From contig JANOEP010000064.1 in assembly GCA_031441465.1 (NCBI GenBank), positions 1 to 63,032 on the forward strand: a DNA stretch of 63,032 bases, given 5' to 3'. The translations under genes and the position numbers were made by a program. Below are positions 576-62,892 of the stretch, in pieces. The DNA comes from a bacterium (lineage in GTDB: Bacteria > Krumholzibacteriota > Krumholzibacteriia > LZORAL124-64-63). Below the pieces are notes generated by a model that saw only the letters and a program-made list of their open reading frames with translations, was not told where the DNA came from and searched no databases. Position 1 is the first letter of the stretch. Each line of letters starts with the position of its first letter.

Positions 576-2548
576 CCGCCCGCCCGCCCCTGTTCACGCC
601 GTTTCACCGCGCCGAGGAGACCATCCGGATCAGCCCCGCGCTCGCCCGCGACGGGGGGCTGCTCGCCTGGGCCCGGGACTTCCAGCTGGGCACGGCCGGC
701 TACCGCGACCTGCTCGACCCCGCCGACCTGCACAACACCGAGGTCCCGTTCAACAGCCTGAACGTGGCGGTCATGCTCACCGCGCGCGCCCAGCTGGCGC
801 TCGAGGAAGGTCTGGCCCAGCTCCACGTGGGCGGGGAGGTGCGCCCGCACACGCAGGAGTTCATCGACCTGGCGGCCCGCCTCTACGCGGCCTGCGGGAT
901 CCGCGTCCGCCTGCGCCCTGAGGGTTGCCGCACCACGCCGATCTGGCTGTCGTCATTCGGGGTCAACTACGAGGAACTCGACGGCGGCGAGAACTTCACC
1001 GCCTCGCACAGCCAGAGCTACAAGGGCGGCTGGAAGCCCATGGACGATTCGGGCATGCAGCTGCTGGAGATGGCCGGCCGCATCGCCGACCGCGTCCGCC
1101 TGCTGGCCGAGCGGGCCGCCGAGGAGGGGCTCGAGATCCCGCTGGCGGCCGCGGACGACCCCCTGATCGTGCGCGACTTCGACCCGGTCGCCGCCTACGC
1201 GGACTCGCTGCGGGCCATCGTGCCCGCGGAGATGCTGGACGGGATCGCCGCCGCTGCGGCCCGGGGCTTCCGCACGGCGATCTGCACCGAGGGCGGCAGC
1301 ATGGGCGCCGCCGCGCGCCGGGTGTTCGCCGAACTGGGCGTGGGCGTCGACGGGGACGGGCCCGTCTTCTTCACCCATGAAGCGGAGGCCGCCGACTATC
1401 ACGGCATCGGGATCCTCGACGGCGTGAACCATGGCGTCGATCCCGGCAAGTGGCAGGTGTACAAGCATGTCGGCGCGCAGGACCTGCTGCGGGAGCGCCG
1501 CGCCGACCTCGTGTTCATCTGGGATCCCGACGGCGATCGCTTCAACATGGTGACCACGGCGCCCGTCGAGCTGGCCGCGCACGCACGTGCGGCCGGGCTC
1601 GAGGTCGACCCGCTCGACGACGCGCGCGTGCTGGTCTTCTTCAAGCCGAACCAGATCTACTTCATGCTCGCCGCGGCGCGCCTGGAGTCGCTGCACGCCG
1701 CCGGCACCCTCGGCGACGACGACTGGATCGTGGCGACCAGCTGGCCGACCAGCCGCAGCATCGGCGAACTGGCCGAGGCCTTCAACCGGCGGCACGGCAC
1801 CCGGCTGAGCACCTTCCGCGTGCCGGTCGGCTTCAAGCACTTCGGCAGCCTGGTCGCCGACCTGGAGAACCAGGTGCTCGAGTCGGACCCCGAGGATCCC
1901 GACCTGACCACCCGCGCCGCGGACGTGACCGGGATCGAGACGGAGTTCGGGCCGCGCCCCCGCCTGCTGATCATGGCGGAGGAAAGCGGCGGCGCCGCCC
2001 TCGGTCCCGACGACTGGATGCTGTCGCGCGACGAGGAACGCGCGACCCTGGCGATCAAGGAAAAGGACGCCATGCAGATCGGCCTGGTCGCGCTGGGCCT
2101 CGGGGCGCGCCTGTTCGCCGCGGGGGGCAGCTTCGCCGCCTTCTACCTGGACCGCCTGGACGCCTACGGCATCGTGCACCGGTTCTACGAGCGGCGCGAC
2201 GTCACCCTGTTCGACGAATCGCTGCGCGGCCCGGCCCGCGAGGCGGCCCGCGCCGCGGGCAACCGCCGCAAGGCGGACGTCGTGGCCTTCTTCGCCGCTC
2301 TGGAGGGGCGCCTGCCGGCGGACGTGTCCGCCGCACTGCGCGCGCGCCTCCCGGCGGGGACCGAGCTGCCGGCGGTCACGCGCTGCTTCTGCGCCGGCGA
2401 CGGCACGCTGATCGAGTTCGAGGGCTGCTGGTTCGAGCTGCGGGCCAGCGGCACCGACGCCGTGCTGCGCTATTACTTCGAGGGCGGCGATCCGCAGCGG
2501 GTCGCCGCGCTCAACGCGGCCCTGATCGGCCTGAGCCTCGACGGATGA
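572..2548 (+). CDS. Phosphoglucomutase/phosphomannomutase (alpha-D-phosphohexomutase) family, divergent
   Basis: GTAGYR, TASHS phosphoserine loop, DPDGDR metal loop, VGFK, EESGG, RASGT motifs. Confidence 0.8.
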   Translation: MTARPPLFTPFHRAEETIRISPALARDGGLLAWARDFQLGTAGYRDLLDPADLHNTEVPFNSLNVAVMLTARAQLALEEGLAQLHVGGEVRPHTQEFIDLAARLYAACGIRVRLRPEGCRTTPIWLSSFGVNYEELDGGENFTASHSQSYKGGWKPMDDSGMQLLEMAGRIADRVRLLAERAAEEGLEIPLAAADDPLIVRDFDPVAAYADSLRAIVPAEMLDGIAAAAARGFRTAICTEGGSMGAAARRVFAELGVGVDGDGPVFFTHEAEAADYHGIGILDGVNHGVDPGKWQVYKHVGAQDLLRERRADLVFIWDPDGDRFNMVTTAPVELAAHARAAGLEVDPLDDARVLVFFKPNQIYFMLAAARLESLHAAGTLGDDDWIVATSWPTSRSIGELAEAFNRRHGTRLSTFRVPVGFKHFGSLVADLENQVLESDPEDPDLTTRAADVTGIETEFGPRPRLLIMAEESGGAALGPDDWMLSRDEERATLAIKEKDAMQIGLVALGLGARLFAAGGSFAAFYLDRLDAYGIVHRFYERRDVTLFDESLRGPAREAARAAGNRRKADVVAFFAALEGRLPADVSAALRARLPAGTELPAVTRCFCAGDGTLIEFEGCWFELRASGTDAVLRYYFEGGDPQRVAALNAALIGLSLDG

Positions 2549-2558
2549 GGGGGGATCC

Positions 2559-2828
2559 ATGAGCGGCAGGAACTACCGCACGCTGACGGTCTACAGCGCC
2601 ACCTGGTGCCCCGACTGTCGTGTCGCCAAACGCTTCCTCGACGAGCACGGCGTGGTTTACGAGACCGTGGAGATCGACCGCGACGAAGACGCCGCCCGCC
2701 TGCTGGAGGAGCGGACCGGCAAGCGGGGGATCCCGTACTTCGTGCTGGACGGCGAGCGGTGGGAGCGCGCCTACGTCCCGCGCCGGGGCTTCGACCGCGA
2801 GGGCATGACCGCCCTGCTGGGACTGTAG
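2559..2828 (+). CDS. Glutaredoxin/NrdH-mycoredoxin-like protein
   Basis: YSATWCPDC and GIP motifs, 89 aa, purine-rich RBS. Confidence 0.85.
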   Translation: MSGRNYRTLTVYSATWCPDCRVAKRFLDEHGVVYETVEIDRDEDAARLLEERTGKRGIPYFVLDGERWERAYVPRRGFDREGMTALLGL

Positions 2829-2931
2829 GCGGCTCCGGGGTTGGCAGCACCTCGTGGGCCGTGCTAGCATGCCGCCGCCGGGCGATCGCCCGTCCGGCCC
2901 AAGCGACTTACCGCCGGCAAGAGGAGGATCC

Positions 2932-4002
2932 ATGCGCGGCACGAAGAACGTCCTCGTGGTGGGGACCGGGACCATCGGCGAGCCCCTGATCGGGCTGTTG
3001 AGCCACTTCAAGGATCAGTTGGGCGTCGACGAGGTGCTCTTCCACAAGAACACGCCGCTGGTCACCGACCGCAGCAAGGTCAAGGACCTGATCCGGCGCG
3101 GCGCGCGCATCGTCTCCAACCAGGAGCACGTCGCGGGTTTCAAGGATATCGGCATCCAGGTCGACACGACGATCGAGGACGCGCTGGAGGCCTGCCGGGT
3201 CGTCATCGACTGCACGCCCATGGGCAACGACATGAAGGAGAAGTGGTACCGGGCCTACGAGGGCTCGACCGAACTGTTCATCGCCCAGGGCAGCGAGTTC
3301 GGCTTCGGCAAGCAGTACGCGCGCGGGATCAACGACGAGGTGCTCGACCACGCGACGGACAAGTACCTGCAGGTGGTCAGCTGCAACACCCACAACCTGT
3401 CGCTGATCATCAAGATGCTCGGGCTCGGCGACGAGGGACCCGACAACCTGGTGCAGGGGCGGTTCGTCTGCATCCGCCGCGCCAACGACATCAGCCAGGA
3501 CGGCAAGTTCGTGCCCAGCCCGGAGATCGGCTCGCACGGGGACGCCCGCTTCGGGACCCACCACGCCCGCGACTCCTGGCACCTGTTCAACACGCTGGGC
3601 TACGACCTGAAGCTGTTCTCCTCGGCCATCAAGCTCAACACCAACCTGATGCACACCCTGCAGTTCCATCTGTCGGTGCGCAAGCCCGTGACCCACGCCG
3701 AGCTGATGCAGCGCTGCGAGTCCAACGACCGCGTGGCGATGACCCACAAGAAGACGGCCAACTCGATCTTTTCGTTCGGGCGGGACCACGGTTTCTACGG
3801 CCGCATCCTCAACCAGACCGTGATCCCCTACAACGGGATCCACGTCTCGCAGGACGGCCGCGACATCACCGGGTTCTGCTTCACGCCCCAGGACGGCAAC
3901 AGCCTGCTGAGTTCGGTCGCGGCCACCGTCTGGGCCCTGTACCCGGACACCTACGACAAGATCATCCAGTGCCTGCGGCCCTACTTCTTCGACGAGGTGT
4001 AG
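2932..4002 (+). CDS. Archaeal-type (class II) glyceraldehyde-3-phosphate dehydrogenase-like protein
   Basis: GTGTIG Rossmann loop, VIDCTP, QGSE, VVSCNTH catalytic Cys, RRAND; GAGGAGG RBS before ATG 2932. Confidence 0.75.
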   Translation: MRGTKNVLVVGTGTIGEPLIGLLSHFKDQLGVDEVLFHKNTPLVTDRSKVKDLIRRGARIVSNQEHVAGFKDIGIQVDTTIEDALEACRVVIDCTPMGNDMKEKWYRAYEGSTELFIAQGSEFGFGKQYARGINDEVLDHATDKYLQVVSCNTHNLSLIIKMLGLGDEGPDNLVQGRFVCIRRANDISQDGKFVPSPEIGSHGDARFGTHHARDSWHLFNTLGYDLKLFSSAIKLNTNLMHTLQFHLSVRKPVTHAELMQRCESNDRVAMTHKKTANSIFSFGRDHGFYGRILNQTVIPYNGIHVSQDGRDITGFCFTPQDGNSLLSSVAATVWALYPDTYDKIIQCLRPYFFDEV

Positions 4003-4044
4003 CCGGGAGCGTCACGCACGGCCGAAGGCACGGCTCATCGCCGA

Positions 4045-4076
4045 AAGGGCGCCCGGTCGCGAGACCGGGCGCCCTT
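4045..4076. terminator. Bidirectional intrinsic terminator between convergent genes
   Basis: AAGGGCGCCCGGTC-GCGA-GACCGGGCGCCCTT, perfect 14-bp stem with GNRA loop. Confidence 0.75.
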
Positions 4077-4098
4077 GGTTTATGGTCCGACCGGCGTG

Positions 4099-5574
4099 CT
4101 AATCGGCGGGCGGCGGTGCGAGCCGCGCCATCAGGTCGCGGTAGGTCTGCTGGGCGGGCAGCTTGGCGTCGGCGCGGGCCAGCAGGGGCTGCACCTTCGT
4201 CAGGGCCTGGCCGGCGAGGCCGGCTTCGCCCAGCTCCATCGCGGCCTGCGCCAGCAACAGCAAAGGCCGGATGCGCGCCGGGTTGGACTCGAGGATCAGC
4301 TTCGCGTTCTCGAGGGCCGGTCCCGGCCGGCCGGCGGCGAGGTAGCTCTCGCCCTGCCGCCACAGGTACCACCAACGCTCGTGCGCGGGCCGGGTGCTGT
4401 TGGAGTCGAGCATCAGCTGCCACTCGTCGATCGCCTTTTCGTGGTCGCCGTCCCGGGTCGCCAACATGGCCCGCAGTTGGTGCTCCAGGCTGTCGATCTG
4501 TTCGCGGAAGGCCTTGAAGGCGAATTCGTCCTTCTGGCGCGACGCGGCGAAGAACCCGGCGGCGACGGCGTCCGCCTCGGCGCGGTGGTCCTCCATCGCC
4601 AACTGGATCGCCCTGTAGAAGCCGACCAGGAAGGCGTCCGGGTACTTCGACTGGTAGACGGTCATGGCGCGCAGGGCCTCGTCGTACAGCTCGTGGGTGT
4701 AGTACATCCGGATGAGCGTCTCGTCGAGTTCACGTTCCTGCGGCGAGCCGGCCAGCGCGGTGCGGACGCTCTCGAGGATCTCTTCGCCCCTGGCGATCAT
4801 GCCCTGCTCGAGGTACAGCTCGCCCAGGTTGATCTGCGAGAAGTGGAAGTCGGGCTGGACGTCCAGGGCGGCCTTGAACTCGCGTTCGGCTTCCGCGTAG
4901 TCGCCCTTCCAGCTCAGCACTTCCCCCAGCGAGTCGTGCGGGTTGGCCAGGCCGGGCGCCAGGAAGGCGTACTTCCGCAGATGGGTGACGGCCTGCTCGT
5001 AGTCGCCGCGGCCGGCGGCGAGATAGCCGAGCATGTTGTAGGCGGGCGCGTGGTTGGGTTCGATGGCCAGGATCTGCTCGTAGACGTGCAGGCACTCTTC
5101 CCGCTGACCGATCTGGTAGAGGACGCCGGCCCTGGCCGACAGGGCCATCAGGTCCGTCGGCTGCTCGGCGAGCACGTAGTCGAGCAGCGAGTCGCGGGTC
5201 TGGTCCCCCGGCTTCTTGTAGGCGAGCAGCAGCAGCTCGATCTTCGCGCGTTCGAGCGCGTTGGGCAGGCGGGCGGCGAGGCTGTCGGCGACGGCCGCTT
5301 CGACCTCGCTCCCGGTCTTGTCGCCGAAGCGGATCTTGAGCTGCGAGAGCAGGGCGTGGGCCGCCGCGAACTTGGGATCCAGGGTCACCGCGCGCCGGAG
5401 CGAGGAATCCGCCTGCGTGAACTGGAAAGCGTTCATCTGGGAATAGCCCAGCTCGAACAGGTCGTAGGCCTCCGCCGAGCGCGTGGTGAACTGGCGTTCC
5501 GGCCCGCCCAGGAACAGCAGGGCGAGGGCGACGAGCGCCAGCGCGGCCAAGCCGATCATGACCGATCTCTTCAT
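4099..5574 (-). CDS. Membrane-anchored/secreted tetratricopeptide-repeat protein
   Basis: N-terminal hydrophobic helix; repeated TPR-like helices (AVTLDPKFAAAH, LAIEPNHAPAYNMLG, ANPHDSLG); start overlaps the stop of the upstream phosphatase gene. Confidence 0.8.
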   Translation of the reverse strand: MKRSVMIGLAALALVALALLFLGGPERQFTTRSAEAYDLFELGYSQMNAFQFTQADSSLRRAVTLDPKFAAAHALLSQLKIRFGDKTGSEVEAAVADSLAARLPNALERAKIELLLLAYKKPGDQTRDSLLDYVLAEQPTDLMALSARAGVLYQIGQREECLHVYEQILAIEPNHAPAYNMLGYLAAGRGDYEQAVTHLRKYAFLAPGLANPHDSLGEVLSWKGDYAEAEREFKAALDVQPDFHFSQINLGELYLEQGMIARGEEILESVRTALAGSPQERELDETLIRMYYTHELYDEALRAMTVYQSKYPDAFLVGFYRAIQLAMEDHRAEADAVAAGFFAASRQKDEFAFKAFREQIDSLEHQLRAMLATRDGDHEKAIDEWQLMLDSNSTRPAHERWWYLWRQGESYLAAGRPGPALENAKLILESNPARIRPLLLLAQAAMELGEAGLAGQALTKVQPLLARADAKLPAQQTYRDLMARLAPPPAD

Positions 5575-24455: not shown

Positions 24456-27341
24456 CTACTTCATCAGGGTCATCTTGCGGACTTCCGTGTCCGCACCCGC
24501 CACGAGCCGGTAGAAATAGGTCCCGGTCGCCGCGCGCTGCCGCGCGGAGTCCAGGCCGTCCCACACGACCGCATGAGGGCCGGCCGTCATCTGGCCGTCG
24601 ATGAGCGTGCGCACGAGGCTGCCGTCCACCGCGTAGACGCCCAGCCGCACGTGCCGCGCCTCGGGCAGCGCGAAGGCGATGGTCGTTCTGGGGTTGAACG
24701 GGTTGGGGTAGTTCTGGCCGGCCGAGAACCGGACCGGCGTCTGCGGTTCGCCGCCGGTGGTCTGCGACACGCGCAGATCGCCGTTGTCGGTGCGGCGCGC
24801 TTCGATCGCGGGGGCGACCGTCACGTCTGCGCTGAAGGTCACGCGCAGCAGTTCGCCCGCGCCGGCGATGGCGCCGCCGCGGCCCAGCAGGGCGAGGCTG
24901 GCGTCCAGGCCGTTGCGGTCGATGTTGGCCACGAAGGCCGGAGAAACCTGGGCGTCGAGCAGCTCACCTGCGCGGACGTCGCAGACCACCCCGTCGGGCA
25001 GGTCGGCGCGGAGACGCAACCCCTTGAAATCAGCGCAAGGCTCGACCAGCTCGAGCGCCCAGGTGTTCCCATCCAGACGGATCCAGGCCAGGACCGCGTT
25101 CGGTGTGCCGCCGGCGGGCTGCCGCGGCAACACGTTGCCGAAGTTCATGGCGAAGATCATCAGGTCCTCGAAGTCGATCACGTTGTCGGTGGTGGGGATG
25201 CCGAAGCTGCTGGTGTCGTCGGTGGGGCCGACGTCGGCTTCGTTGTCGTAGCCGCCGACGCCGTGGACGTAGCCGAAGGCCGAGCCGAGTTCGTCGATGT
25301 CCTGCACGTCGACGTCGCCGTCGTACGTCGGTGGATCGATGTCGCCCAGCCAGTAATTGGTGCAGCGGTTCATCGGGCCGGCGCCGGGGCCGACGTTGCC
25401 GGCAGCGTCCACGGCGTAGACCTCATAGTAGTAGATGCCGCGCGGCGCGTAGCTGTCGACGTACGTCAGGTCCGTACCGGCCACCGAACTGCTCACCAGC
25501 GACCACTCGAGGCTGGCGTCGGCGGCGGCGCGGTTGGCGGGCCACAGGGGCTGGTTCGGGTTGTCGTCGTCGTACTCGGGGTAGGCCGAGACAGCTTCGT
25601 TGCCCACACCGGTGAGGTGCCAGACGGCACGCCACACCTCATAGTGGTGGACGTCCGAGGCGTTGGCCATGGCCCAATCGAGCGTGACCTGCTCGTGGCC
25701 GGGCTCGGTCGTCAGATCGGTCACGCCAGGCGGCGCGGTGCAGTCCACTGTGAACGAGACCCCGCTCATGTCGGCGAAGATGTCCATGTTGGCCGGATCG
25801 CGCATGCGGTAGCTCTCCACCGCCACATCCACGACGCCGTTGCCGCTGGTCGTCAGGACCAGCGTGAACAGATTGCCAGCGACCTTCAGGCCGGGTGTGG
25901 TGCCCAGGATGGACTCGTTCACCGAGTAGACACCGGCGCCCTCGTCCACCACGTAGAAGACCGTGGTGCCGACCGACGACAGGCCGCCGGCCTTGGCGAA
26001 GTGGAGCGTGGGGTTGATGGGGGCCACCGGACCGGTCACCTTCAGCACGATCTCGTAGCCGCGCAGACCGGGCGTGGCGTCGCCGGGCGCGTAGCTGAAG
26101 GTCACGGTCTTGGTCTGGCCGCACTGCACGGGGTCGGGGCCGCTCGCGGCGGCGGTGACCGTGGCGCTGGCGACGGCAGCCAGACCGGCGATGACCTCAC
26201 CGCAGGTTTCCGTGTAGTGGTAGCCGTTATCGTAGACCCAGCCGCCGGAGATGTGCTGGGTGGAGGCCAACCAGATCGCGCCTTGGCGGGCGGCGGCGCG
26301 CGTGGCGACCGTCGAGGGGAGGTTGTCGGCCAGAGACCGTAACGCGAATCCCGTGCCCTGCCAATCGCGGTCGATTTCGGCCGTGGCCCCGTACTGGTCG
26401 CTGAAGGCGCCGTCAGCATACTGGCAGGACAGCAGCAGGGCCTGCAGCCCGGGCAGTTCGGCGGTGTGGGTGCCGGAGGTCGCGAAGGCGTCGATGATGC
26501 CCGTCACGCCGAGGGTGTACCAGTAGTAGAGCGGCGTGTTCCAGGCCGGATCGCTGCCCTTGTTGGCGCCGTTGGGGCGGAAGTAGCCGGGAACGCCGGC
26601 GAAACTGTCCTGGTAGATGACCTCCGCCATGGCCGCGGCTTCGACGACGTGGCCGGCGAGGGGGAAGGCCTCGTCCATCAGCATGGCCGCCTCGACCCAG
26701 GGTGCGATGTCCCAGGGGATGATGCCGTTGCTGTAGCCTTGGCCGTAGCGGAAGTCGCGGATGAATGCGGCGAGGTTCGCCATCGTCCCGTAGACGCCGA
26801 GCTGACGGTTCCAGATCGCCTGTGCACCCGCCCGGTAAGTGGCCGGGGCGGGGCAGTCCGGCAGGTTGGCGAATTCCAGCAGGAAGATCACGTCCGGACC
26901 TGAGCGGATCACGGTGGGGCCGACGCTGACGATATGGTCGGCGGCGTCCTTCATCGCCGTGAAATAGGCGGGTAGCGGGTTCACGAGATAGGCGCGGTAG
27001 ATGCCCTGCACCGTCGCGCCGTAAGTGTTGTTCGGACTGGCAGCCGTGCTGTGGGTGAAGGCCAGGCATTGCCAGTCCCACCCGCCGTCGTCGGGATCGG
27101 TGTCGGCGGCGCCGTTGCCGGCGTTGTCCTCGGTGAAGTCAGCCTGCATGCCGACCAGGTAGTCGGCGCCGGCCATCATCGACGCCGCGAAGTCTGTCGG
27201 ATCGCCGAAGGCTTTGTCGGCGGTGGGGATGATGCCGCGCACGCCGTCAGGCATACCGTCGGCGGGCGTGGCCGGCGGTCCGGCGGCCCAGGCGCCCGCC
27301 GCGATCAGCAGCAGCGCCAGGAACAAAGTCGTTTTTCTCAT
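24456..27341 (-). CDS. Large secreted protein: alpha/alpha-barrel-like N-terminus, cohesin-like, FN3-like, dockerin-like, FlgD CTD
   Basis: Signal peptide; QxxDGG(W/F)-type motifs (DDGGWDW, CQYADGAF, TQHISGGW); GDIDPPTYDGDVDVQD..FG and DFEDLMIFAMNFG EF-hand-like pair; YPNPFNPRTT..RKMTLMK. Confidence 0.7.
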   Translation of the reverse strand: MRKTTLFLALLLIAAGAWAAGPPATPADGMPDGVRGIIPTADKAFGDPTDFAASMMAGADYLVGMQADFTEDNAGNGAADTDPDDGGWDWQCLAFTHSTAASPNNTYGATVQGIYRAYLVNPLPAYFTAMKDAADHIVSVGPTVIRSGPDVIFLLEFANLPDCPAPATYRAGAQAIWNRQLGVYGTMANLAAFIRDFRYGQGYSNGIIPWDIAPWVEAAMLMDEAFPLAGHVVEAAAMAEVIYQDSFAGVPGYFRPNGANKGSDPAWNTPLYYWYTLGVTGIIDAFATSGTHTAELPGLQALLLSCQYADGAFSDQYGATAEIDRDWQGTGFALRSLADNLPSTVATRAAARQGAIWLASTQHISGGWVYDNGYHYTETCGEVIAGLAAVASATVTAAASGPDPVQCGQTKTVTFSYAPGDATPGLRGYEIVLKVTGPVAPINPTLHFAKAGGLSSVGTTVFYVVDEGAGVYSVNESILGTTPGLKVAGNLFTLVLTTSGNGVVDVAVESYRMRDPANMDIFADMSGVSFTVDCTAPPGVTDLTTEPGHEQVTLDWAMANASDVHHYEVWRAVWHLTGVGNEAVSAYPEYDDDNPNQPLWPANRAAADASLEWSLVSSSVAGTDLTYVDSYAPRGIYYYEVYAVDAAGNVGPGAGPMNRCTNYWLGDIDPPTYDGDVDVQDIDELGSAFGYVHGVGGYDNEADVGPTDDTSSFGIPTTDNVIDFEDLMIFAMNFGNVLPRQPAGGTPNAVLAWIRLDGNTWALELVEPCADFKGLRLRADLPDGVVCDVRAGELLDAQVSPAFVANIDRNGLDASLALLGRGGAIAGAGELLRVTFSADVTVAPAIEARRTDNGDLRVSQTTGGEPQTPVRFSAGQNYPNPFNPRTTIAFALPEARHVRLGVYAVDGSLVRTLIDGQMTAGPHAVVWDGLDSARQRAATGTYFYRLVAGADTEVRKMTLMK

Positions 27342-27450: not shown

Positions 27451-30400
27451 CTACTTCATCAGCAGCATCTTGCGGACCTGGCTGTCCTGGCCCGCTTCGA
27501 TGCGGTAGAAGTAGGCGCCGGAAGCGACGCCCTGGCTCTGGCTGTCGAGGCCGTCCCAGACGACGGTGTGCGGACCGGCCGGCAGCGCGCCGTCCACCAG
27601 CATCCTCACCAGCGACCCGTCCAGCGAGTAGACGGCGAGGCGGACCTCGCGGCTCTCGGGCAGGACGAAGGCGATGGTGGTCTGGGGGTTGAAGGGGTTG
27701 GGGAAGTTCTGGTGCGCGGCGAAGCGCAGCGGCGTGACCGGGGTGATCTCGGTGGTCATGTTGACCGTGAGATCGCCGTTCGCGCCGTCGCGGGCCGACA
27801 CCCGGGGCTGGAGTTCGACGTCGGCGCTGAAAACGACGCGCAGCAGTTCGCCCGCGCCGCCGATCGTGGCGCCCTGCCCCAGCAGTGCCACGCCGGCGTC
27901 GAGGCCGTTGCCCGGTGCGTTGGCGGCGAAGCCGGGGCTGCTCTGCCCGGCCAGCAGTGCGCCGGCCGCGACTTCGCAGGTCACGCCTTCGGGCAGGGGG
28001 GCCGTCAGGTGGAGGCCCTTGAGGTTCGTGCAGGGTTCGGCCAGCAGCAGCGACCACGTCGTGGCGTCGATGCGCTGCCAGACCAGCATCGGGTTTTCGG
28101 TGCCGCCGGCCGGCTGCCGGGCCGGTCCGACGACGCCGAAGTTCTGCGCGAAGATCATCAGGTCTTCGAAGCCTACCGTGCTGTCAGTCAGCGGGATGCC
28201 GCGGCCGCCGTGTGTGTCGGTCGGGCCCACGTCGCAGTGGTTGTTGTAAGACGTGTGGTTACCGCCGAAGCCGTATGAGGCGCCGAGGCGGCTGATGTCC
28301 TGAACATCGACGAGGCCGTTGTAGGCAAGGGGCGGGTCCACGTCGCCGAGCCAGTAGTTGGTGGCGCGGTTGTCGGGCGACGAGCCGGGCCCGAAGTTGC
28401 CGGCCGCGTCCACGGCGTAGACCTCGTAGTAGTAAATGCCGCGCGGCGCGTAACTGTTCACGAAGATCGTGGCCGTGCCGGGAAGTGCGGGTGCGACCAG
28501 AGCCCACTCGGGATTGAGCAGGACGGCCGCGTGGTTGGCCGGCCAGGTCGGTTCCTTGTCCGCTACCATGTCATCGTACTCGGGGTAAGCCGAGGTGACG
28601 TTGTCGCCGGTGTGCCAAAGGGCGCGCCACACCTCGTAGTGGTGCACGTCCGTGGCGACGGCCATCGTCCAGCCGAGGGTGACCTTCTGGTGGCCGGGCG
28701 TCGACGTTAGGTTGGTCACGGCTGGAGGCGCCGTGCAGTCGACCGTGATCGTCGCGCCGGCTACCGTGCTGCCGATGTCGCCGTTGGTCAGGTCGCGTAG
28801 CACGACGGTCGGCATCGTCACGGTGCCGGTCCCGTCGCTGACGGGGTGGAAGGTGATCGCGAACAGATTGGCCGCGGTCGTAAGGCCTGTTGTCCCGCCC
28901 AGGATGGCGCTGTCGACGGTGAAGGTGCCGTTGCCATTGTCGATCGGGAAGAAGTAGTGGTTGCTGAAAGCGTCGAAGGCGTGCAGGTCGGCGATGTCGG
29001 CGGCGCCGAAAGCCAACTGATCCGAACAGTCCACCGTCACCGTGAAGCCGCGCAGAGCGGGCGTCATGGCGTTGGGGACGTAGCGGAAGTTCAGGGTGAC
29101 GGTCTGGCCGCAGTTGATCGGGCCGCTGGCGACGGGCAGGGCGGAGACGTCAGCCATGCCTGTCCAGGGCTCGAACAACACGTGGTCACTCACCTTGTCA
29201 CCGGTGCCGTCGGGGTTCAACGAGGCGTGGTAAGGGCCGCTGGCGGCGCCCCACCAGTTGCTGCGCGCATTGAACGCGAATCCGTTGGTGGGAGTGCCGT
29301 TGACCACCACGCCGTAGTCAGCGATGGGGTTGCCGACGGTACCGTTGTCGTAGATCTGGTTGCCGGAAGCCGAGATGTTGTTTGAGCAGTCGTAGCAGGC
29401 GTACTGCCCGTTGGACGGCGGGCTCTCGAACGTCGGGTTCCAGTAATTGCCGACCAGGTCCACCATCACGCCGTTCCACCCATTGTCGCGGATGATGTTG
29501 TTGGTGAGGGAGACCCCGTCGTTCTTGACATCCATGTACACGCCGCTCTTGCTGTTCCCGTAAATCTGGTTGCCGGTGAGGCTGAGATTCACGGGTCCGT
29601 AAGCGGTCGTCGGACCGGCGATCTTGTCCGAGGCGCCGCGGACCAGCAGGATGCCGTGCCCGTACTTCAGGGCGTTGGGGTTGTCGCCGGGCAGGGCCGT
29701 GTTGTTGTAGATCTTGTTGTTGCTGATCGTCAGGTTGGTGAAGCCGCCCGCGGATTCGATGCCGCTGCGGTGCGAGCCGTAGATCTCGTTGTCGCTGATG
29801 ACCGTGCCGGTCATAGGGGCGGGGCTCGGCGCGCCGTAGGCGAAGTAGGACGACCAGATGAAGATGTTGTCACCGTTGCCCTTGCAGTCGAAGATCTTGT
29901 TGTGCGCAAACGTGCTGCCGATGATGCCGTTGGCGCCGTAGGGATGGTTGACCAGGTACAGGCCCATGCGCCCCTTCGTGCCGTCCTGGCTGGCGAGGTT
30001 CGTGTTGGGGCCGATCACGCAGTTGACCACCTGGATGCCGCTGATCGGCCGCGTAAGGGCGTAGACGCGCACCAGCGATGTGTTGAGATTGCCGACCGCG
30101 TTCAACTCGCCCACCACGAAGCCGTCGAACACCACGTTGTCGGTATCGACGATGTCCACGATGGCGTTGTAGGCGACGGTCGGGTTCGGGTGCGTGATGA
30201 CGCTCTCCACGCCGGTGTTCCAGGTGTAGTTTGCCGGGACAGCGTAGCCGTTCTTGTTCACGCCGGCGGTGGCGCCGAGCACGGTGAGGGACTTGTTGAT
30301 GGATATCGCCTCGACGTAAGAGCCGGGGCGCACGAGGATCGTGTCGCCGGGATCGGCTGCGTCGATGGCGGCCTGGATGCTTGAGTCCACCCCCCAGGAC

Positions 30401-50134: not shown

Positions 50135-52729
50135 ATGAAACCCCGGCTCCGTTCCCACCGCCTCGTGCTCGTCCTGGTGTCCGGCCTGATCCTGGCGGGG
50201 GGTCTCGCTGATCCGGCCCGTGCGGTCCCCCGCACGGTCCTGGGGGAGCTGTTCTCCTCGGCCGGCTGACCCTACTGCCCTTCCGCGGTCGCGGGATTCC
50301 ATGATCTGCTCGCCGCCTACGACAGCACCGAGTTCGTGCCGCTCACCTGGGACACCGGCACCGGCAGCGGCAGCACCCGTTTCAACTACTACGGTTTTTC
50401 GGGGACGCCGACGGCCGTGTTCGACGGGCTGGTCAGCTCCGTCGGCGGTTTGCCCAGCGGCAGCATGTTCGACAGCTACCAGCCGCTGGTGCAGAACCGT
50501 TTGGGCGCCGTCTCGCCCCTGACGATCACCGCGAGCTTCCTGGTCGCCGGGGTGAACGGATCGGTGACCGCCACCATCGAGGTGGCCTCGACCGTGACCA
50601 CGGGAGCCAACCAGGTGCGTTTTTACGTCTATGAGGCGTTGCCCCGGCCCGAGTACCCCAACTACGTGCGCGCGGTCCTGGCGAGCGAACCCTTCGCGCT
50701 GACCGTGCCCGGACAGTCGGTCACCGTCCAGCGCCCGTTCACCGTCGACCCGACGTGGGACCCCGAGCGCCTCGGTGTGATCGTCTTCGTGCAGAGCGAC
50801 GCGAACCGCGCGGTGCTGCAGGCCGTCGAAGCCGAGGCCGACTACGCCGGCGTCCTGACGGTCGACGCCCAGCCGGACGGGCTGGCGGCGCCGTGGACCC
50901 TGAGCGGGCCCGGCGGCTTCTCGCTCGCCGGCGTGGAGGACCGCGTCGTGCGCGTGTTCCTGGCCGGCGAGTACTCCCTGGCCTGGGGCGAGGTGCCCGG
51001 CTGGTCTTCGCCCGCGCCCGCGGTGACGACGGTGCAGCTGGCGCCGGACGACGAGATCACGCTGACGGGCCTCTACACCGACGGCCCCTTCGCGGCCGCG
51101 GCCGATGCGGACCTCGCCATGGCCGGCGCCGCGGCCCGCGGCGTGGCGATCGTCGACGCCGACGAGGACGGCGACCTGGACGTCTACGTCTCGGTCCACG
51201 GTGGCGCGAACGCGCTGCTGATCAACGAGGGCGGCCTGGCCTTCACCTCCGGCGGCCACGCCCTGCTGCGCGGTGTGGGCGCCGGCATGTCCGCGGTCTG
51301 GGCCGACGTGACCGGGGACGGTCACCGCGACGTCTACCTCGTGCGCGACGGCCAAGCCAACCTCCTGCTGCGCGCCGACGGCGCCGGCGGCTACCTCGAC
51401 GCGACCTTCGGCCCCGCGGGCGACACCGGACCAGGGACCTCGGTCGCCGCCGCCGACTACGATCGCGACGGCCTGCTGGATCTCTACGTGGTCAACGGCG
51501 GCACCGCGAACGTCCTGCTGCGCGGCGTGGCCGACATGGGCGTCGCCTGGTTCATGATGAACCAGATGGGGATCATCGCCGACACCGGCAACGGCGCCGG
51601 CGCGGCCTGGGGCGACTACGACAACGACGGCGACCAGGACCTCTACCTGACGAACCGCTTCACCGCCAACCGCCTCTTCCAGAACGGGGGGACCCTCGGC
51701 TGGTACAACGCGACCGGCACGGGCGTGCTGGCCGACACCGGCAACGGCGCCGGCGCGGCCTGGGGCGACTACGACAACGACGGGGACCTCGATCTCTACG
51801 TGGCCAACGACGGCCAGGCCGACCTGCTGATCCGCAACGACCGCGGCACCTGGGCGCTGATCGTCGGGTCGGCCCTGGGAGACGTCGGGCACGGCCGGGG
51901 CGTTGCCTGGGGCGACCTGGACAACGACGGGGACCTGGACCTGTACCTGGCCCGGCACGACGAGCCCGACCTCACGTTGCGCAACGACGGCGGCGGTGTG
52001 TTCACCCGCATCCCCGTGGGCGTGGCGACGGCCGCCGGCGTCGCCGAAGGCGTCGCCCTGGGCGACCTCGACGGCGATGGCGACCTGGACGTTTACATCG
52101 CCAACGACGGGGGACCGAGCGGCCTGCTGCTGAACGAGATGGCCGGCGGCAACCACTGGCTCCACCTGGACCTCACGGCGTCCGGCGCGAACACGTCGGC
52201 CGTAGGCGCCCGCGTCTGGCTGACCGCCGGCGGCGTGCGCCAGATGCGCGAGGTCAACGCCGGTTCCGGCTACCTGTCCCAGGACTCGCCGACGGTCGAG
52301 TTCGGCCTGGGCGGCGCCGCGATCGCCGACACCGTGCACATCCGCTGGCCCGACGGCCAGCAGCAGGTCGTCACCGGTTTGGCCGCCGACCGACGGCTGA
52401 ACGTGCGCCAGGGCGTTCCCGTCGTGGCGCCGCCCCAGGCGGCGGCGTTGCGGCTGCGGCTGGACGAGCCGTTCCCGAACCCGTTCAATCCCGCCACGAC
52501 CCTGCGGTACGAACTGCCGCGGGCCGGGAGCGTCGAACTGCGGATCTACGATGTCGCTGGCCGGCTCGTGCGCTCCCTGCGCTCGGGTGAGGTCGAGGCG
52601 GCGGGACGCCGCGAAGCCGTGTGGGACGGCCGGGACGACGCGGGGCGCGCCGCCGCCGCCGGCGCCTACGTCGTGCGCCTGTCGGCGGGCGGGGAGGCCC
52701 GCAGCCGGCGACTGCTGTTGGTGAAGTAG
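50135..52729 (+). CDS. Predicted secreted selenoprotein: Omp28-like thioredoxin domain (U-P-Y-C), FG-GAP repeats, ASPIC/UnbV, FlgD CTD
   Basis: ORF 50087-50269 and ORF 50336-52729 are in frame across TGA 50267-50269, giving VLGELFSSAG-U-PYCP. GGAGGA RBS and signal peptide lie upstream of the TGA; a hairpin follows it. Confidence 0.85.
50281..50296 (+). promoter_or_regulatory. Candidate bacterial SECIS element
   Basis: TTCCGC-GGTC-GCGGGA hairpin after an 11-nt spacer from the TGA, with GGUC apical loop. Confidence 0.65.
51578..51783 (+). repeat. 53-bp perfect direct repeat (51578-51630 and 51731-51783) within the FG-GAP repeats
   Basis: GCCGACACCGGCAACGGCGCCGGCGCGGCCTGGGGCGACTACGACAACGACGG occurs twice, period 153 bp. 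Confidence 0.85.
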
Positions 52730-57140: not shown

Positions 57141-58748
57141 TCAGAATCGACTGACCAAGCGCAGTTCGACTCCGGTGAAGTCCGGCACCAGGTAACAGGT
57201 ACCCGAGGTGCAGGCGGTGCCGCCGCGCCGGCTGCCGGCGAACAGCGCGGCTTCGTGGTGACGGTTCAGAGGCGCCACCGCCACGGCTCCGATCCAGTGG
57301 CGGGGCTCCGTCTCGACGACGTCGAAGGTCAAGGGATCGTCCTTCTCGTCCGGATCGTTCGAGAATTCGGCCTGCAGGGCCAGCGTGCCTTGGCCCGCCC
57401 GGTCCACCCCGAGACCCAGGAAGATGTTTTCGAAGGCTGACACCTCGCCGAAGGTCGTTCGTTCCGCGCGCTGGTGCTCGGCGTTCAGGCGGAGGCTCAG
57501 CCCCCCACCGAATTCCCGGCCCACGGCGAGGCCCGCCGTGCAGTGGTCGGTGAGCCCCTCGACCTCGTCGCAGCCGGTGGCGGCGAAGACTTCCCAGTGC
57601 CAGAGTGCGAGCGGGTCGCCTTGCAGGGCGACGACGTCGAGTCGGTATTGCTTCAGGCCGTTGACTTCGTTGGCGGCCCGGGCTGATTCGACCTGGAGGG
57701 CCAATTCGCCGGGCAACGAACCCATCAGCGAGATCTGGCGGCCGTGCTCGCCGCCGGCGAGCAGGAAATGGGACATGCGGTTCAGCAGGTGCTGGCTCAT
57801 CTCGGGCACGAGGTTGGGCGGATCGTTCCAGCCGAGGGCGAATCCGTCGTAGTCCTTGGTCTCGAAGCTGGCTCCCCAGCGCCCGACGCTGATCTGGGTC
57901 GCCGTGTAGAAGGCGTGCGGGGTCGTCGCGCCGGTGTCGAGCCCGTCGCCCAGGGGATCCCAGGACTGGCCGGCGTACTCGGCATAAGCCTGCAGATCGA
58001 GGCCGCGCGCCGCCAGCGACGGCGCCAAGCGGGCGGCGCGCAGCGTCAGGTCGGTCGACGCATACTCGGCGAGTTCCGGCGATGAACCCGGGAGCTGGCG
58101 TTCGCTGCGCAGGTAGCCGGCGCCCAGGTCCAGCGCCGGGTGGAGCGTGAAGGTCGCGTGGCCGCCTCCGACGTGGCCTTCGCGGCGGGGCAACGCGACG
58201 ATCCCCGGTGGAACGTCGGGGTAGCGCACCGGTTCGCCGCCGAACAGCAGCGCCGAAACCGGTCCCCGGTTCGCCTCCAGGATCACGCCATCGAGGCTGC
58301 GGGCATCGGCGTACTGGGACGGCGGGAAGACGGCGTCGCGCACGACGCCCCCCAGTTCGAAGGCGCGGAACAGCAGCCCGCGGCCGAGCGTGGCGAAGCC
58401 GTCGCCGAGCCGCAGGCGCAGCCCCTCGTCCTCCCACTCGGCGTACTTCAGGGTGACTTCGTCGTAGCGGGCGGGCAGGAAGCCCTCGTCGCGGGATGGC
58501 TGGTAGCTCTCGGCGCGCAGCCCCGCACGCAGTCCGTCGCGGCTGTACACGAGGTCGAACCGGTCGTAGATGCCCGTCATGGCGTTCGTTTCGGTCAGGG
58601 GGTCCCGTCCCGCCTGCCAGAGCAGGAGGTTCGAGGCCTGCACCGAGCCCGACGAATCGCCGGCGCCGGCGAGCGTTGCCAACGGGTGGACCAGTCGTGA
58701 GCACAGCAGCGAGGCGACGCCGAGCGCGACGAGCCGTGACGTCTTCAT
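57141..58748 (-). CDS. DUF6029-like outer-membrane beta-barrel with C-terminal CxxGxC motif
   Basis: Signal peptide; LGDGFATLGRGLLFRAFE..D..LDG; C-terminal GSRRGGTACTSGTCYLVPDFTGVELRLVSRF ending in Phe; start overlaps the TlpA stop. Confidence 0.75.
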   Translation of the reverse strand: MKTSRLVALGVASLLCSRLVHPLATLAGAGDSSGSVQASNLLLWQAGRDPLTETNAMTGIYDRFDLVYSRDGLRAGLRAESYQPSRDEGFLPARYDEVTLKYAEWEDEGLRLRLGDGFATLGRGLLFRAFELGGVVRDAVFPPSQYADARSLDGVILEANRGPVSALLFGGEPVRYPDVPPGIVALPRREGHVGGGHATFTLHPALDLGAGYLRSERQLPGSSPELAEYASTDLTLRAARLAPSLAARGLDLQAYAEYAGQSWDPLGDGLDTGATTPHAFYTATQISVGRWGASFETKDYDGFALGWNDPPNLVPEMSQHLLNRMSHFLLAGGEHGRQISLMGSLPGELALQVESARAANEVNGLKQYRLDVVALQGDPLALWHWEVFAATGCDEVEGLTDHCTAGLAVGREFGGGLSLRLNAEHQRAERTTFGEVSAFENIFLGLGVDRAGQGTLALQAEFSNDPDEKDDPLTFDVVETEPRHWIGAVAVAPLNRHHEAALFAGSRRGGTACTSGTCYLVPDFTGVELRLVSRF

Positions 58749-59302
58749 TCGGCGGTCCCAGGCGCCGGGTCCAGCAGCGGCAACAGTTCCTGTTCCAGCA
58801 ACCGGACGTCGCCCTCCCGGTAACCACGGTGCAGAGAGCGGATCCGGCCTTCGCGATCGATGAGGAAGGTCATGGGAATGGCCTCCGCCCGGTAGAGCTG
58901 GGACGCCCGCTTCTCGGTATCGATCAGGATCGGGAACGTCAGGCCCAGCGCGCGGGCCGTGGCGCCGATCTTGGGGCGGTTGCGCGGCTCGTCGGTGCTG
59001 ACCGCCAGGACGGTCAGACCGCGCGGCGCGTAGCGGTCGTGCAATTGCTGCAGCTCCGGCAGGGCCTGACGGCAGGGGCCGCACCAGGTCGCCCAGAAGT
59101 CGAGGATCACCGGCCCCCGCTTCAGGGCCTCGCCCAGGACGACGCGATCTCCGGCCACGGTCTCGAGCGAGAACGCGGGGGCCGGCCCGAGGTCCGGTTC
59201 GGCCGTCGTGGCGTCTGCCGCACACCGGGACGCCACGGCCAGGGCGAGCAGCGCGGCGATGATGCTGGCGGAGCGCAGCTGGCCGGAGCCTGACGATGCC
59301 AT
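58745..59302 (-). CDS. TlpA-family thiol-disulfide oxidoreductase
   Basis: N-terminal hydrophobic segment; APAFSL, VILDFWATWCGPC, IPMTFLIDREG. Confidence 0.92.
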   Translation of the reverse strand: MASSGSGQLRSASIIAALLALAVASRCAADATTAEPDLGPAPAFSLETVAGDRVVLGEALKRGPVILDFWATWCGPCRQALPELQQLHDRYAPRGLTVLAVSTDEPRNRPKIGATARALGLTFPILIDTEKRASQLYRAEAIPMTFLIDREGRIRSLHRGYREGDVRLLEQELLPLLDPAPGTAE

Positions 59303-59310
59303 GCGACCTC

Positions 59311-60132
59311 CTACTTCAACAGGGTGACGAAACGCGACTGGCTCCGGCCGTCGACCGTGAGTTCGACGAGGTAATTGCCGCTGACCAGAGTACGGCCGCC
59401 AGCATCACGACCGTCCCAGTCGGCCACGTAGTCCCGCGCGCCGTCGTGGTGCCCGTCGACGAGCGTGCGCAGGACACGCCCCTGCACGTCCAGGATCCGC
59501 AACCGCACCTGCCGGCTGCCGTCGCCGTCGATCCGGTAGGCCAGGGTCGTGCTCGGATTGAAGGGGTTCGGGTAGCCCGGCCGCAGGCTGAACCCGTCGC
59601 GCGACGGTGTACCGGCAGCGGTGGGCAGGTCCGCCAGGGCGAGGTTGATCGCGGCGGTCGTCAGGGCCAGGTTCCAGCCGCTGCGGCGGAAGGTGATCAG
59701 CCCGTCTCCGCCGACGACGAAGAAGATGTCGTAGGTGCAGGCGTAGCTCGAGCCGATGCCGGCGGCGGCCGCGCCCATCAGTGCCGGGTAGGTGATGCCG
59801 GTGACCGAGAGGAAGGAATTGGTCTGGCTGAGGTTGCCGCCCCACATTTCCAGGCCGAGAGCCTGGAAATCCGGTCCGGCGAAGCTGTTGGCCATCGTCT
59901 GCGTGGACGGACCCGCCGCCCGGCAGCTGCTTCAGCCATGGCCGAACATGAACAGGAATTTCACCCTGCCGTCGTAGTCGGACAGGCTGTGTGTCTGGCC
60001 GGTCGTGCTCTGGAGGGTGAAACCGGCGGCGACGTCGCCGACCTGTCCGGTCGCTCCCGCAGTGCCGGCCACCAGCGCCAGCGCGGCGACGCCCAGCGCG
60101 GCCGCTCTCGTGAGGGGAGATCTGGTATTCAT
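59311..60132 (-). CDS. Predicted secreted selenoprotein: AhpC/TSA-TlpA-like redoxin (U-S-S-C) with FlgD CTD
   Basis: ORF 59932-60186 and ORF 59311-59895 are in frame across TGA 59934-59932: QVGDVAAGFTL..HSLSDYDGRVKFLFMFGHG-U-SSCRAAGP. AAGGA RBS and signal peptide; YPNPFNPSTT tail. Confidence 0.85.
59905..59921 (-). promoter_or_regulatory. Candidate bacterial SECIS element
   Basis: GGGCGG-CGGGT-CCGTCC hairpin after a 10-nt spacer from the TGA, with G-rich GGU loop. Confidence 0.6.
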
Positions 60133-60324
60133 GGCCAGTCCTTTCAGGATCAGTGCTTGCCGCACGCCTAATACAAGATAAAACACATCCTTAATATAGA
60201 TTCATAGTTCCACTGTGGCAATCGCCCCAATTCTCGGTAGGAGTAGGGATGACGGCTTCTGGAAACCGGAGTATCTTTCGCCTTCATTCTGGACGCCCCC
60301 CCCTCGGACCACGTGGAGGAACCC

Positions 60325-61875
60325 ATGTCCGGCGACCGCGATCTCATCCAGCCGAAGCCCGACATCGTCGCGCGCGCCCACATCTCCTCGATGCAGGAGT
60401 ACCGGCGCCTGTACCGTCTCTCGCTCGACGATCCCGAGACGTTCTGGGGCCGGCAGGCTGCGATCCTGGACTGGTTCCATCCCTGGCGGACCGTCTTCGA
60501 CCACGACTACGAGAACGTGGACTTCGGGTGGTACCTCGGCGGCCGGCTCAACGCCTGCTACAACTGCGTGGACCGGCACCTCAAGGAACGCGGCGACCGC
60601 ACGGCCATCATCTGGGCGAAGGACGAGCCGGGGGAGTACGAGCACATCTCCTACCGCGACCTCAAGCACCGGGTCGCCCGGGTGGCGAACGTCCTGCGCC
60701 ACCACGGCGTGCAGAAAGGCGACCGGGTCTGCCTGTACATGCCGATGATCCCGGACCTGGCCGTCGCCATGCTGGCCTGCGCGCGCATCGGCGCCGTCCA
60801 CTCGATCGTCTTCGGCGGCTTCAGCAGCGAGGCCATCCGCGACCGGATCCTCGACGCCGGCGCCAAGGTGGTCATCACCGCCAACGAAGGCCTGCGCGGG
60901 GGCAAGCGGCTGCGCCTGAAGGAGACCGTCGACCGGGCCGTCGACGGGCTGGATCTGGTCACGACCGTGCTGGTCGCCCGGCGCACGGACGCCGAGGTCG
61001 CCATGAGGGCGGGCCGCGACTTCTGGCTGGACGAGGAGTGCCGCAAGCAGCGGTCGACCTGCACGGTGGAGTGGATGGGGGCGGAGGACCCGCTGTTCAT
61101 CCTCTACACCTCCGGCTCGACGGGCAAGCCCAAGGGTGTCCTGCACACCACCGGCGGCTACCTGGTCTACGCCGCGATGACCCACAAGCTGGTCTTCGAC
61201 TACCACCCCGGCGACATCCACTTCTGCGCCGCGGACATCGGCTGGATCACCGGCCACTCCTACATCATCTACGGCCCGCTGGCCAACGGAGCCACCACGG
61301 TCATGTTCGAGTCGATCCCGACCTACCCCGACGCGGGGCGCTATTGGCAGATCGTCGACGACCTGGGCGTGAACATCTTCTACACCGCGCCCACGGCGCT
61401 CAGGGCGATCCACCGTTGCGGCGACGGCTTCCTGGCGGGCAGCCGCCGCGACTCGCTGCGGATCCTGGGGACCGTCGGCGAGCCCATCAACCCCGAGACG
61501 TGGCGCTGGTACCACGACCAGGTCGGCGGCGGGCGCTGCGCCGTGGTCGACACGTGGTGGCAGACCGAGACCGGCGGCGTGCTCATCTCGCCGCTGCCCG
61601 GCGTCACGCCGTTGAAGCCCGGCTCGGCCACGCTGCCCTTCTTCGGGATCAAACCCCTGCTCATGGACGAGCAGGGACGGCCGCTAACCGGCGACGGCGT
61701 CGCCGGGAACCTCTGCATCGAGCAGACGTGGCCGGGCCAGGCCCGCACCGTCTACGGCGACCACGAGCGTTTCCACGAGACGTACTTCACGCAATACCCG
61801 GGCTATTACTTCACGGGCGACGGCTGCCGCCGCGATGAGGACGGCTACTACTGGATCACCGGTCGTGTCGACGAC
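60325..61875 (+). CDS. acs: Acetyl-CoA synthetase, 3'-truncated at a chimeric junction
   Basis: [53 protein letters not shown]; homology is lost after that. Confidence 0.9.
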
Positions 61876-62751
61876 GCGCGCGACGACTTCGGTCGGCAAA
61901 TAAGCGAAGGGAACCTGTGCATCGAGACGGTTGCGGAATTCCGGCGCGAACAGCTTCTTCACCGCTTCTTCGCCAGCATCTTCCTTGCTGATATTATTGC
62001 CGAAGCCGATGCCTTCCTTGGCCATGTCGCTGGCCCCGGCATTGGTTGTCATAATCAGGATGACATTGCGGAAATCAACGGTCTTGCCATGATGGTCGGT
62101 CAGGCGGCCATTATCCATCACCTGCAACAATATGTTGAACAGATCAGGATGCGCCTTTTCAATTTCGTCGAGCAACAGCACACAATGCGGGTTCTGGTCG
62201 ACCGCGTCGGTCAGCAGACCGCCCTGATCGAAGCCGACATAGCCCGGAGGCGCACCGATCAGGCGCGATACCGAGTGCCGTTCCATATACTCGCTCATAT
62301 CAAAGCGCTTGAGCGGTATGCCCATGATCGAGGCAAGTTGCCGAGCAACTTCGGTCTTGCCAACGCCGGTGGGCCCGGAAAACAGATAGTTGCCAATCGG
62401 CTTGTCGCCATCGCGCAATCCGGCGCGGGACAATTTGATGGCGCTTGTCAAAACCTCGATGGCTTTGTCCTGTCCGAATACCACCCGTTTCAGATCCGCT
62501 TCGAGTGTACCCAAAGCCGTCTTGTCATCCTTGGATACATTTTTCGCCGGGATGCGGGCAATTGTTGCGATGACGGCTTCAATTTCGCGTGCGGTTATCA
62601 ACTTGCGGCGTTTGGACGGTGCGACAAGCATCTGCATCGCGCCAACCTCGTCAATGACATCGATGGCCTTATCAGGCAATTTACGGTCATTGATATAGCG
62701 CGCGGACAGCTCCACCGCGGCTTTTAAGGCGTCGGGGGTATATTTGACCTT
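61867..62751 (-). pseudogene. clpA: Internal fragment of ATP-dependent Clp protease ATPase ClpA, foreign codon usage
   Basis: [74 protein letters not shown]; no start or stop. Confidence 0.85.
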
Positions 62752-62892
62752 GAGCTGAAACTGCTCGACCTGGAGTTCGCCAACGAGATCCTGACCGGCG
62801 ACGGGCAGGACGTCGATGCGTCAGCGCCGAAGCGGTGGCGCAAGGAGGCGCAGGCGGAGGCGCAGGAGCGGTTCAGGAAGGGACGGCTCTGA
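62746..62892 (+). other. 3' end of an unidentified CDS joined to the clpA fragment
   Basis: High-GC open frame DLELKLLDLEFANEILTGDG..RFRKGRL-stop, followed by a hairpin. Confidence 0.4.

Follow-up and report, generated by a model that had tools for sequence, protein, structure and literature searches.

What is a TGA codon doing in the catalytic motif of a redoxin frame that is otherwise open? The question is raised by a gene on the minus strand of contig JANOEP010000064.1 (assembly GCA_031441465.1, Krumholzibacteriota, lineage LZORAL124-64-63), of which we analysed positions 1 to 63,032, a stretch of 63,032 nucleotides (nt) that we call the window. The gene occupies 59311..60132 and is broken in two by conventional open reading frame (ORF) calling. 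We conclude that the two pieces very probably form one exported selenoprotein gene, in which UGA67 would be read as selenocysteine (Sec, U) and which is predicted to combine a ResA/TlpA-like domain with a tail of the kind used in the type IX secretion system (T9SS).

An in-frame UGA and its conservation

Read on the minus strand from 60132 to 59311, the frame runs ATG ... GGC CAT GGC TGA AGC AGC TGC ... TAG. Its sole in-frame TGA is codon 67 (59934-59932, minus strand), the TAG stop lies at 59313-59311 and 206 codons separate the two, so that read-through gives a product of 273 amino acids with U67 in the motif G-H-G-U-S-S-C, as the first residue of UxxC (U-S-S-C). These figures agree exactly with the first-pass annotation, which had been made from the letters of the window and had proposed a 273-residue protein with Sec at residue 67, split by the ORF caller. 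Translation table 11 indeed yields an 84-amino-acid ORF (59932..60186) and a 194-amino-acid ORF (59311..59895) that opens at the internal ATG 59895. The GC content of third codon positions (GC3) is 0.83 on the 5′ side of the TGA and 0.89 on the 3′ side, compared with 0.88 in the two downstream neighbour genes, and this near-equality makes both halves look coding in the selenoprotein frame, as the earlier remark on host codon usage had implied.

The Sec reading has comparative support. The read-through protein was searched in six frames in 61 related genomes, and each full-length match there has exactly one TGA. Twenty loci (L022-L041) were read through, and the TGA falls at one place in 20/20 of them, within G-[HYFW]-x-U-x-x-C. 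In the resulting alignment A4 (19 rows; L027 was omitted for its frameshifted tail) the residues G64, U67, C70, W97, G99, P116, L118, Y130 and F138 are invariant, and the Met that opens the annotated 194-amino-acid ORF is not conserved. When only the redox domain (residues 28-172) served as query against 208 genomes of the phylum, 87 matches in 69 genomes passed the cut-off of E<=1e-10, with one TGA in 84 of the matches, two TGAs in one and none in two. Both TGA-less matches carry Cys at that position (GYACAPC in G057, GYACSPC in G062), and among database proteins P0020 has Cys there as well (CPHC); it is full-length, shares the tail and is 34% identical over 254 columns. Homologues with Cys in place of Sec, whose search had been suggested as a check, thus exist with CPHC, CAPC and CSPC at the site. 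The TGA column itself is kept among orthologues down to ~30% identity. Judged by these alignments, the pattern across the homologues is a classic Sec/Cys pair.

Several members of the family depart from the common form. The locus L136 (G174:C164, ~678-1055) has a double in-frame TGA in G-F-G-U-W-R-U, a UxxU form with the same tail. At L027 (G001:C15) the tail of the selenoprotein is frameshifted and the frame runs into the downstream TlpA-like gene; the database protein P0017 (454 amino acids) is a similar run-on. The Sec redoxin gene also occurs in tandem pairs in several genomes (L041 in G051:C27, and G155:C78, G145:C12 and G146:C3).

The TGA is no assembly error. A 158-nt contig from a different study's run spans 59822-59979 with 0 differences and, together with the 85 homologous matches that have an in-frame TGA, excludes this explanation; the same contig answers the earlier concern that other data might read TGC or TGG here. 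Contigs of two runs that are possible sources of this DNA contain the whole stretch without a difference and are not independent support. TGA is also an ordinary stop in this organism: of the 31 long ORFs of the window whose GC3 is >= 0.80, it terminates 20, and in several relatives it terminates the orthologous selenoprotein gene itself, which excludes a genome-wide reassignment of TGA.

The machinery for Sec insertion, which the first-pass annotation had proposed to look for, was found in full in the host genome (3.49 Mb, 96.8% complete). It comprises a tRNA-Sec (67.8 bits, cut-off 47; anticodon TCA according to ARAGORN), selB (359 bits), selA (437.3 bits) and selD (342.7 bits), all of which exceed their curated cut-offs. 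The selD gene (L019, G000:C25:35277-36200) has one in-frame TGA itself, and the selenophosphate synthetase is therefore predicted to be a Sec protein in its own right in this genome. A GTPase gene with a weak match to the selB model (72 bits) lies at G000:C24:72400-73056, ~1.7 kb from the tRNA-Sec gene (74727-74821); the actual selB is on another contig, C8. The overall Sec reading of the first-pass annotation is supported by these results, the machinery, the authenticity of the TGA and the Cys homologues being the points on which it had exposed itself to refutation and all three having come out in its favour.

A candidate hairpin of the selenocysteine insertion sequence (SECIS) type follows the UGA at 59905..59921 (minus strand). 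It has 6 bp, one of them G-U, in the arrangement GGGCGG / CGGGU loop / CCGUCC after a 10-nt spacer, all as first described, and a possible outer stem (59899-59926, minus strand) would lengthen it. In E. coli fdhF, the minimal element is reportedly a 17-nt hairpin ~11 nt downstream of the UGA. In our family the same six core pairs recur in 6/6 close sequences, which come from the genus of the window and from two relatives beyond it, and none of the pairs shows covariation. The hairpin of 13 orthologues at a greater distance sits ~8 nt further downstream, over the G-P-G-T-E-A codons, and there both-side changes preserve pairing in three of five predicted pairs; L041 belongs to neither set. According to PMC1088965, a bacterial SECIS element is a stem-loop just 3′ of the UGA whose small apical loop includes a G; the loops in this family likewise contain G.

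The public record shows little of this. The close database entries found are all fragments of 193-195 amino acids (18 near-identical clusters in one search, 20/20 matches in another), labelled ‘hypothetical protein’ where they are named, and none of the selenoprotein-specific NCBIfam models matched the protein at E<=0.1. Because all close entries found are truncated and no such model matches, the annotation of the gene looks systematically wrong in this lineage.

Redox domain, tail and gene neighbourhood

The thioredoxin-fold redox domain covers residues ~31-170 (59623..60042, minus strand). Pfam AhpC-TSA matches residues 31-120 with 33.6 bits (cut-off 26), and the scores of the NCBIfam ResA and TlpA models are low (25-26 bits, where the cut-offs are 170-230); the superfamily match above its cut-off together with these low equivalog scores marks a member of the superfamily and not of those specific equivalogs. 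A profile built from A4 and compared with PDB sequences found a Geobacter thioredoxin-family protein (3kcm, 1.3e-19) and ResA (2e-13), and it places U67 (59932..59934) on the first Cys of the W-C-P-P-C of 3kcm, which confirms the claim that the TGA falls on the first redox Cys position. An AlphaFold2 (AF2) model has a predicted local distance difference test (pLDDT) of 87.8 overall, with values of 94-98 for the redox domain; helix 68-83 has U67 at its N-terminus, and a beta-sandwich tail comes after the thioredoxin fold. The top Foldseek match of the model is ResA (E 1.4e-10, TM(target) 0.88). The peroxidatic motif P-x-x-x-T/S-x-x-C(U), as quoted in PMC13188914, is not present: F-M-F-G-H-G precedes U67 and there is no Pro at -7. 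The protein is not considered a peroxiredoxin because this motif is missing and position -3 from U is an invariant Gly in A4. From profile and model, the redox domain is predicted to be a ResA/TlpA-type UxxC thiol-disulfide oxidoreductase. The label of AhpC/TSA-like redoxin given at first pass holds at the superfamily level only, in that the domain passes Pfam AhpC-TSA but has the profile and fold of the ResA/TlpA type and not of peroxiredoxins.

The extracytoplasmic Cys enzymes ResA, TlpA and CcmG (the DsbE, cd02966 type) are its best profile and fold matches. With them the protein shares predicted export, an active site where helix 1 begins and, in the loop facing that site, a conserved Pro (P116, probably in cis conformation). 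It differs from them in having Sec for the attacking Cys, in the motif G-[HYFW]-x-U-x-x-C where theirs is W-x-x-W-C-x-x-C, and in the extra Ig-like sorting domain. Among selenoproteins, Table 1 of a 2026 review (PMC13188914) gives a ‘Prx-like thiol:disulfide oxidoreductase’ (PF00578, UxxC or UxxU) as predicted with high confidence; set side by side by description, our family shares with it the PF00578 thioredoxin fold, the UxxC site, a UxxU variant (L136) and Cys homologues. The same table holds further predicted families, such as ‘Thiol-disulfide isomerase-like protein’ and ‘Redoxin family protein’, which are of the same fold class, have Sec in or next to the redox motif and, like ours, are all computational predictions. 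PMC1088965 also describes a Prx-like family, whose relationship to peroxiredoxins is distant and whose active site is UXXC, as in thioredoxins, and not TxxU; by comparison with that description, the present proteins add a signal peptide, an FlgD-Ig/T9SS-type tail and a gene trio with TlpA-like and DUF6029 genes. Since UxxC redoxins are well known among the predicted selenoproteins of bacteria, the presence of Sec here is unsurprising as such. As far as the table and these descriptions go, the gene belongs to a known kind of UxxC redoxin selenoprotein, and its secretion-tagged form is new.

A Sec-type (general secretory pathway) signal peptide is predicted for residues 1-27 (60052..60132, minus strand) from a basic n-region, a segment of hydrophobic residues and an end resembling A-x-A (AGA, before TGQVG). 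The complete orthologues in A4 have a comparable N-terminus, and AF2 gives a low-confidence helix at residues 7-19. At the other end, residues 187-273 (59314..59574, minus strand), which begin near PNPFNP, form a domain resembling FlgD-Ig and T9SS type A sorting domains. Pfam FlgD_ig matches residues 206-260 with 27.6 bits (cut-off 27) and Pfam Por_Secre_tail reaches 14.4 bits against a cut-off of 27; PorU and PorZ have C-terminal domains that match the tail too. A signal peptide followed by an Ig-like C-terminal domain of ~85 residues is also what marks T9SS cargo of type A (TIGR04183 / Por_Secre_tail, and the FlgD_ig-like tails of the Fibrobacteres-Chlorobi-Bacteroidetes (FCB) group). To our knowledge, the known T9SS cargos are mostly hydrolases, adhesins and similar proteins. 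The fusion to a secretion domain had been called unusual; the FlgD-Ig tail is indeed present, and the architecture recurs throughout the family.

Of the parts of a T9SS that were searched for in the genome (SprA, PorU, PorV and GldM), SprA was found with 470.8 summed bits against a cut-off of 200, and PorU-like and PorV-like genes were found next to each other. A C-terminal domain like that of the selenoprotein closes about 45 further ORFs of the genome. The PorU/PorZ-like tail, SprA, the PorU-like and PorV-like genes and the many other tailed ORFs together make export by a type IX-like system likely. A single-protein search for related loci returned 79 loci, the majority of which match the tail domain only. 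Other ORFs of the window have an FlgD-Ig/T9SS-like tail as well, among them an FG-GAP/ASPIC repeat protein (50336-52729, plus strand), and the same kind of tail occurs at window positions 24492-24728, 27490-27804 and 52472-52687. Some members of the redoxin family are tail-less (L040, L134, L135 and L138) and end in W-x-G-[IL]-K-x-x-Y-[RK], Sec and Cys forms alike.

Two genes follow the selenoprotein gene on the same strand and make up an operon-like trio with it. An exported TlpA/ResA-like thioredoxin with WCGPC (58745..59302) begins 8 nt after its stop, and the ATG of the third gene (57141..58748; Pfam DUF6029, 51 bits), a predicted large outer-membrane beta-barrel, overlaps the stop of the TlpA-like gene (ATGA). 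The AF2 model of the DUF6029 protein (pLDDT 60, predicted template modelling score (pTM) 0.58) has a signal peptide and ~26 beta-strands and ends ...SRF; Foldseek relates it to usher, AlgE and porin outer-membrane barrels, and a search of the protein against NCBIfam returned 0 families. Among the 20 loci, the selenoprotein gene adjoins a TlpA-like gene in 11 and a DUF6029 gene in 10, where L032 is cut by a contig end and an apparent match at L035 was not counted, as it overlaps the selenoprotein gene itself. Both neighbours are missing in a clade at 35-44% identity (L033-L040), and the trio is present in 5/5 further loci examined and in one Cys-form locus, L134. The NCBIfam WAxxUGC model matched the TlpA-like Cys neighbour and not the selenoprotein.

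At one locus, L137 (~2215-4290), the TlpA-like and DUF6029 sequences share a single 692-codon open frame. We did not take this fusion as reliable, since it was seen at L137 only and the congener L145 has separate frames; it may be a real fusion or an assembly indel. Upstream, an acetyl-CoA synthetase gene is transcribed divergently from the selenoprotein gene. Its ORF (60313..) continues past the AMP-binding domain as an implausible 804-amino-acid frame into a part of the window (61800-62800) where GC falls from ~0.70 to 0.55-0.57; either foreign DNA or a misjoin close to the end of the contig could account for this.

Competing readings of decoding, chemistry and location

In the reading that we favour, SelB and tRNA-Sec would decode UGA67 as Sec, aided by the hairpin that starts 10 nt downstream. 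The product would consist of a signal peptide, the ResA/TlpA-like thioredoxin-fold domain, a short linker and the FlgD-Ig/T9SS-type C-terminal domain, with the active site U67-S-S-C70 and Sec in the position of the attacking Cys. Its most likely chemistry would be thiol/disulfide exchange through a U67-C70 selenenylsulfide, and its most likely route would lead by Sec-type export to the periplasm and then, with loss of the tail, through the T9SS onto the cell surface or into the medium. The neighbouring periplasmic TlpA-like CxxC protein is a plausible reductant and might recharge it.

Several results weigh against this proposal. The energy of the hairpin is unexceptional: for the single sequence the z-score is 0.11 and 103 of 200 shuffles fold as well, while 41% of the 36-nt windows of its own gene are equally stable (median over 20 genes 0.26, with 0/20 in the top 10%). 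Constraint at synonymous sites after the TGA is a trend only among seven close orthologues (invariant codons 5/8 compared with 21/63, Fisher p=0.11). We rejected hairpin energy as proof of Sec, as it is no better than background in GC-rich DNA; the hairpin that the first-pass annotation had taken as a Sec signal exists and is conserved in close orthologues, but its energy is statistically unremarkable, and it supports the Sec reading without carrying or proving it. A metatranscriptome contig from a relative, which spans 59693-59941, differs at 11 positions and stops 8-10 nt after that codon, was likewise rejected as RNA support; it shows neither transcription of this gene nor its TGA. For the proposed location, a site at the surface would part the selenoprotein from its periplasmic reductant. 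TIGR04183 scores 22.3 bits on the tail against a cut-off of 23, the full-length PorU-like match reaches 403 bits against 420, the PorV-like gene that directly adjoins it reaches 95 bits against 250, and GldM was not found in the genome; this last null is uninformative, since the same model also matched 0/14 control genomes.

These points leave room for other readings to different degrees. If the TGA were a true stop, the locus would be a pseudogene or would encode a 66-residue leader peptide and a 194-residue protein from ATG 59895, which is exactly the split that table 11 calls and the fragment length of all close database entries. We hold this to be extremely improbable: the TGA column persists at identities as low as ~30%, both sides are conserved as protein and jointly make up one thioredoxin fold, the downstream Met is not conserved, and the Cys homologues read straight through. 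Hardly more probable is a read-through of the UGA without Sec, by near-cognate insertion of Trp or Cys or by a local recoding unrelated to SelB. It draws on the ordinary energy of the hairpin, but the genome has the full Sec machinery with a selD that is itself a TGA gene, the site corresponds to the catalytic Cys in CxxC and is occupied by Cys in the TGA-less homologues, one homologue is of the UxxU form, and TGA is otherwise a common stop.

The rivals on chemistry and location accept the Sec residue. That the protein is a peroxiredoxin-like peroxidase which detoxifies peroxides outside the cell is suggested by AhpC-TSA as the best Pfam match and by the AhpE and Bcp peroxiredoxins among the fold matches, and Sec is a good peroxidatic residue. 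The P-x-x-x-T/S-x-x-C motif is missing, however, with the invariant Gly at -3, the resolving Cys of the UxxC follows three residues on in thioredoxin-like fashion, and the top matches are of the ResA/TlpA/DsbE type, so that we regard a peroxidase as improbable; from these features, disulfide or thiol exchange is the most likely activity and ranks above peroxide reduction. A stronger rival, which we still think unlikely on balance, would keep the Sec protein in the periplasm, where the tail would be a structural or binding Ig domain and the protein would be active on the inner side of the DUF6029 barrel, beside the TlpA-like protein. The TIGR04183 score just below its cut-off, the PorU and PorV matches below theirs and the failure to find GldM speak for it, as do a TlpA-like reductant encoded 8 nt downstream and the tail-less forms that occur in the same trio (L134, L041); on the other side, it is the C-terminal domains of PorU and PorZ themselves that the tail matches, SprA is over its cut-off, the PorU-like and PorV-like genes adjoin, and dozens of proteins end in the same domain. 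A more speculative idea, to which we give only a small chance, sees the trio as a redox relay that spans the outer membrane, with a selenoenzyme on the cell surface as its last member. The TlpA-like protein would dock on the DUF6029 barrel, through which either reducing power or a small substrate, a thiol or a selenol, would reach the UxxC selenoprotein displayed by the T9SS.

A probable secretion-tagged selenoprotein family

Our full-text literature search for selenoproteins with type IX secretion or T9SS showed nothing relevant among the papers listed, judged by title, and found no selenoprotein work on Krumholzibacteriota and no selenocysteine work on Eisenbacteria. The main text of PMC13188914 is without FlgD, sorting or Krumholz, and its one ‘extracellular’ stands in a reference on cartilage. 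What appears new is the size of the family, with at least 85 TGA-containing matches and with matches in 69 of 208 genomes of one candidate phylum, and a Sec enzyme whose tail is of the type IX secretion kind, an architecture that suggests selenium chemistry on the cell surface or beyond it. Were the relay across the outer membrane true, this would be an extracellular bacterial selenoprotein with its own electron supply, of which we found none in the literature searched on selenoproteins with T9SS and on these phyla. The conserved neighbourhood of TlpA-like and DUF6029 genes provides the first functional context for DUF6029 and a hypothesis for how an exported redoxin may be recharged. With Sec, Cys and one UxxU form in one family, these proteins also constitute a natural set in which the gain of Sec over Cys in an oxidising, extracytoplasmic setting may be studied.

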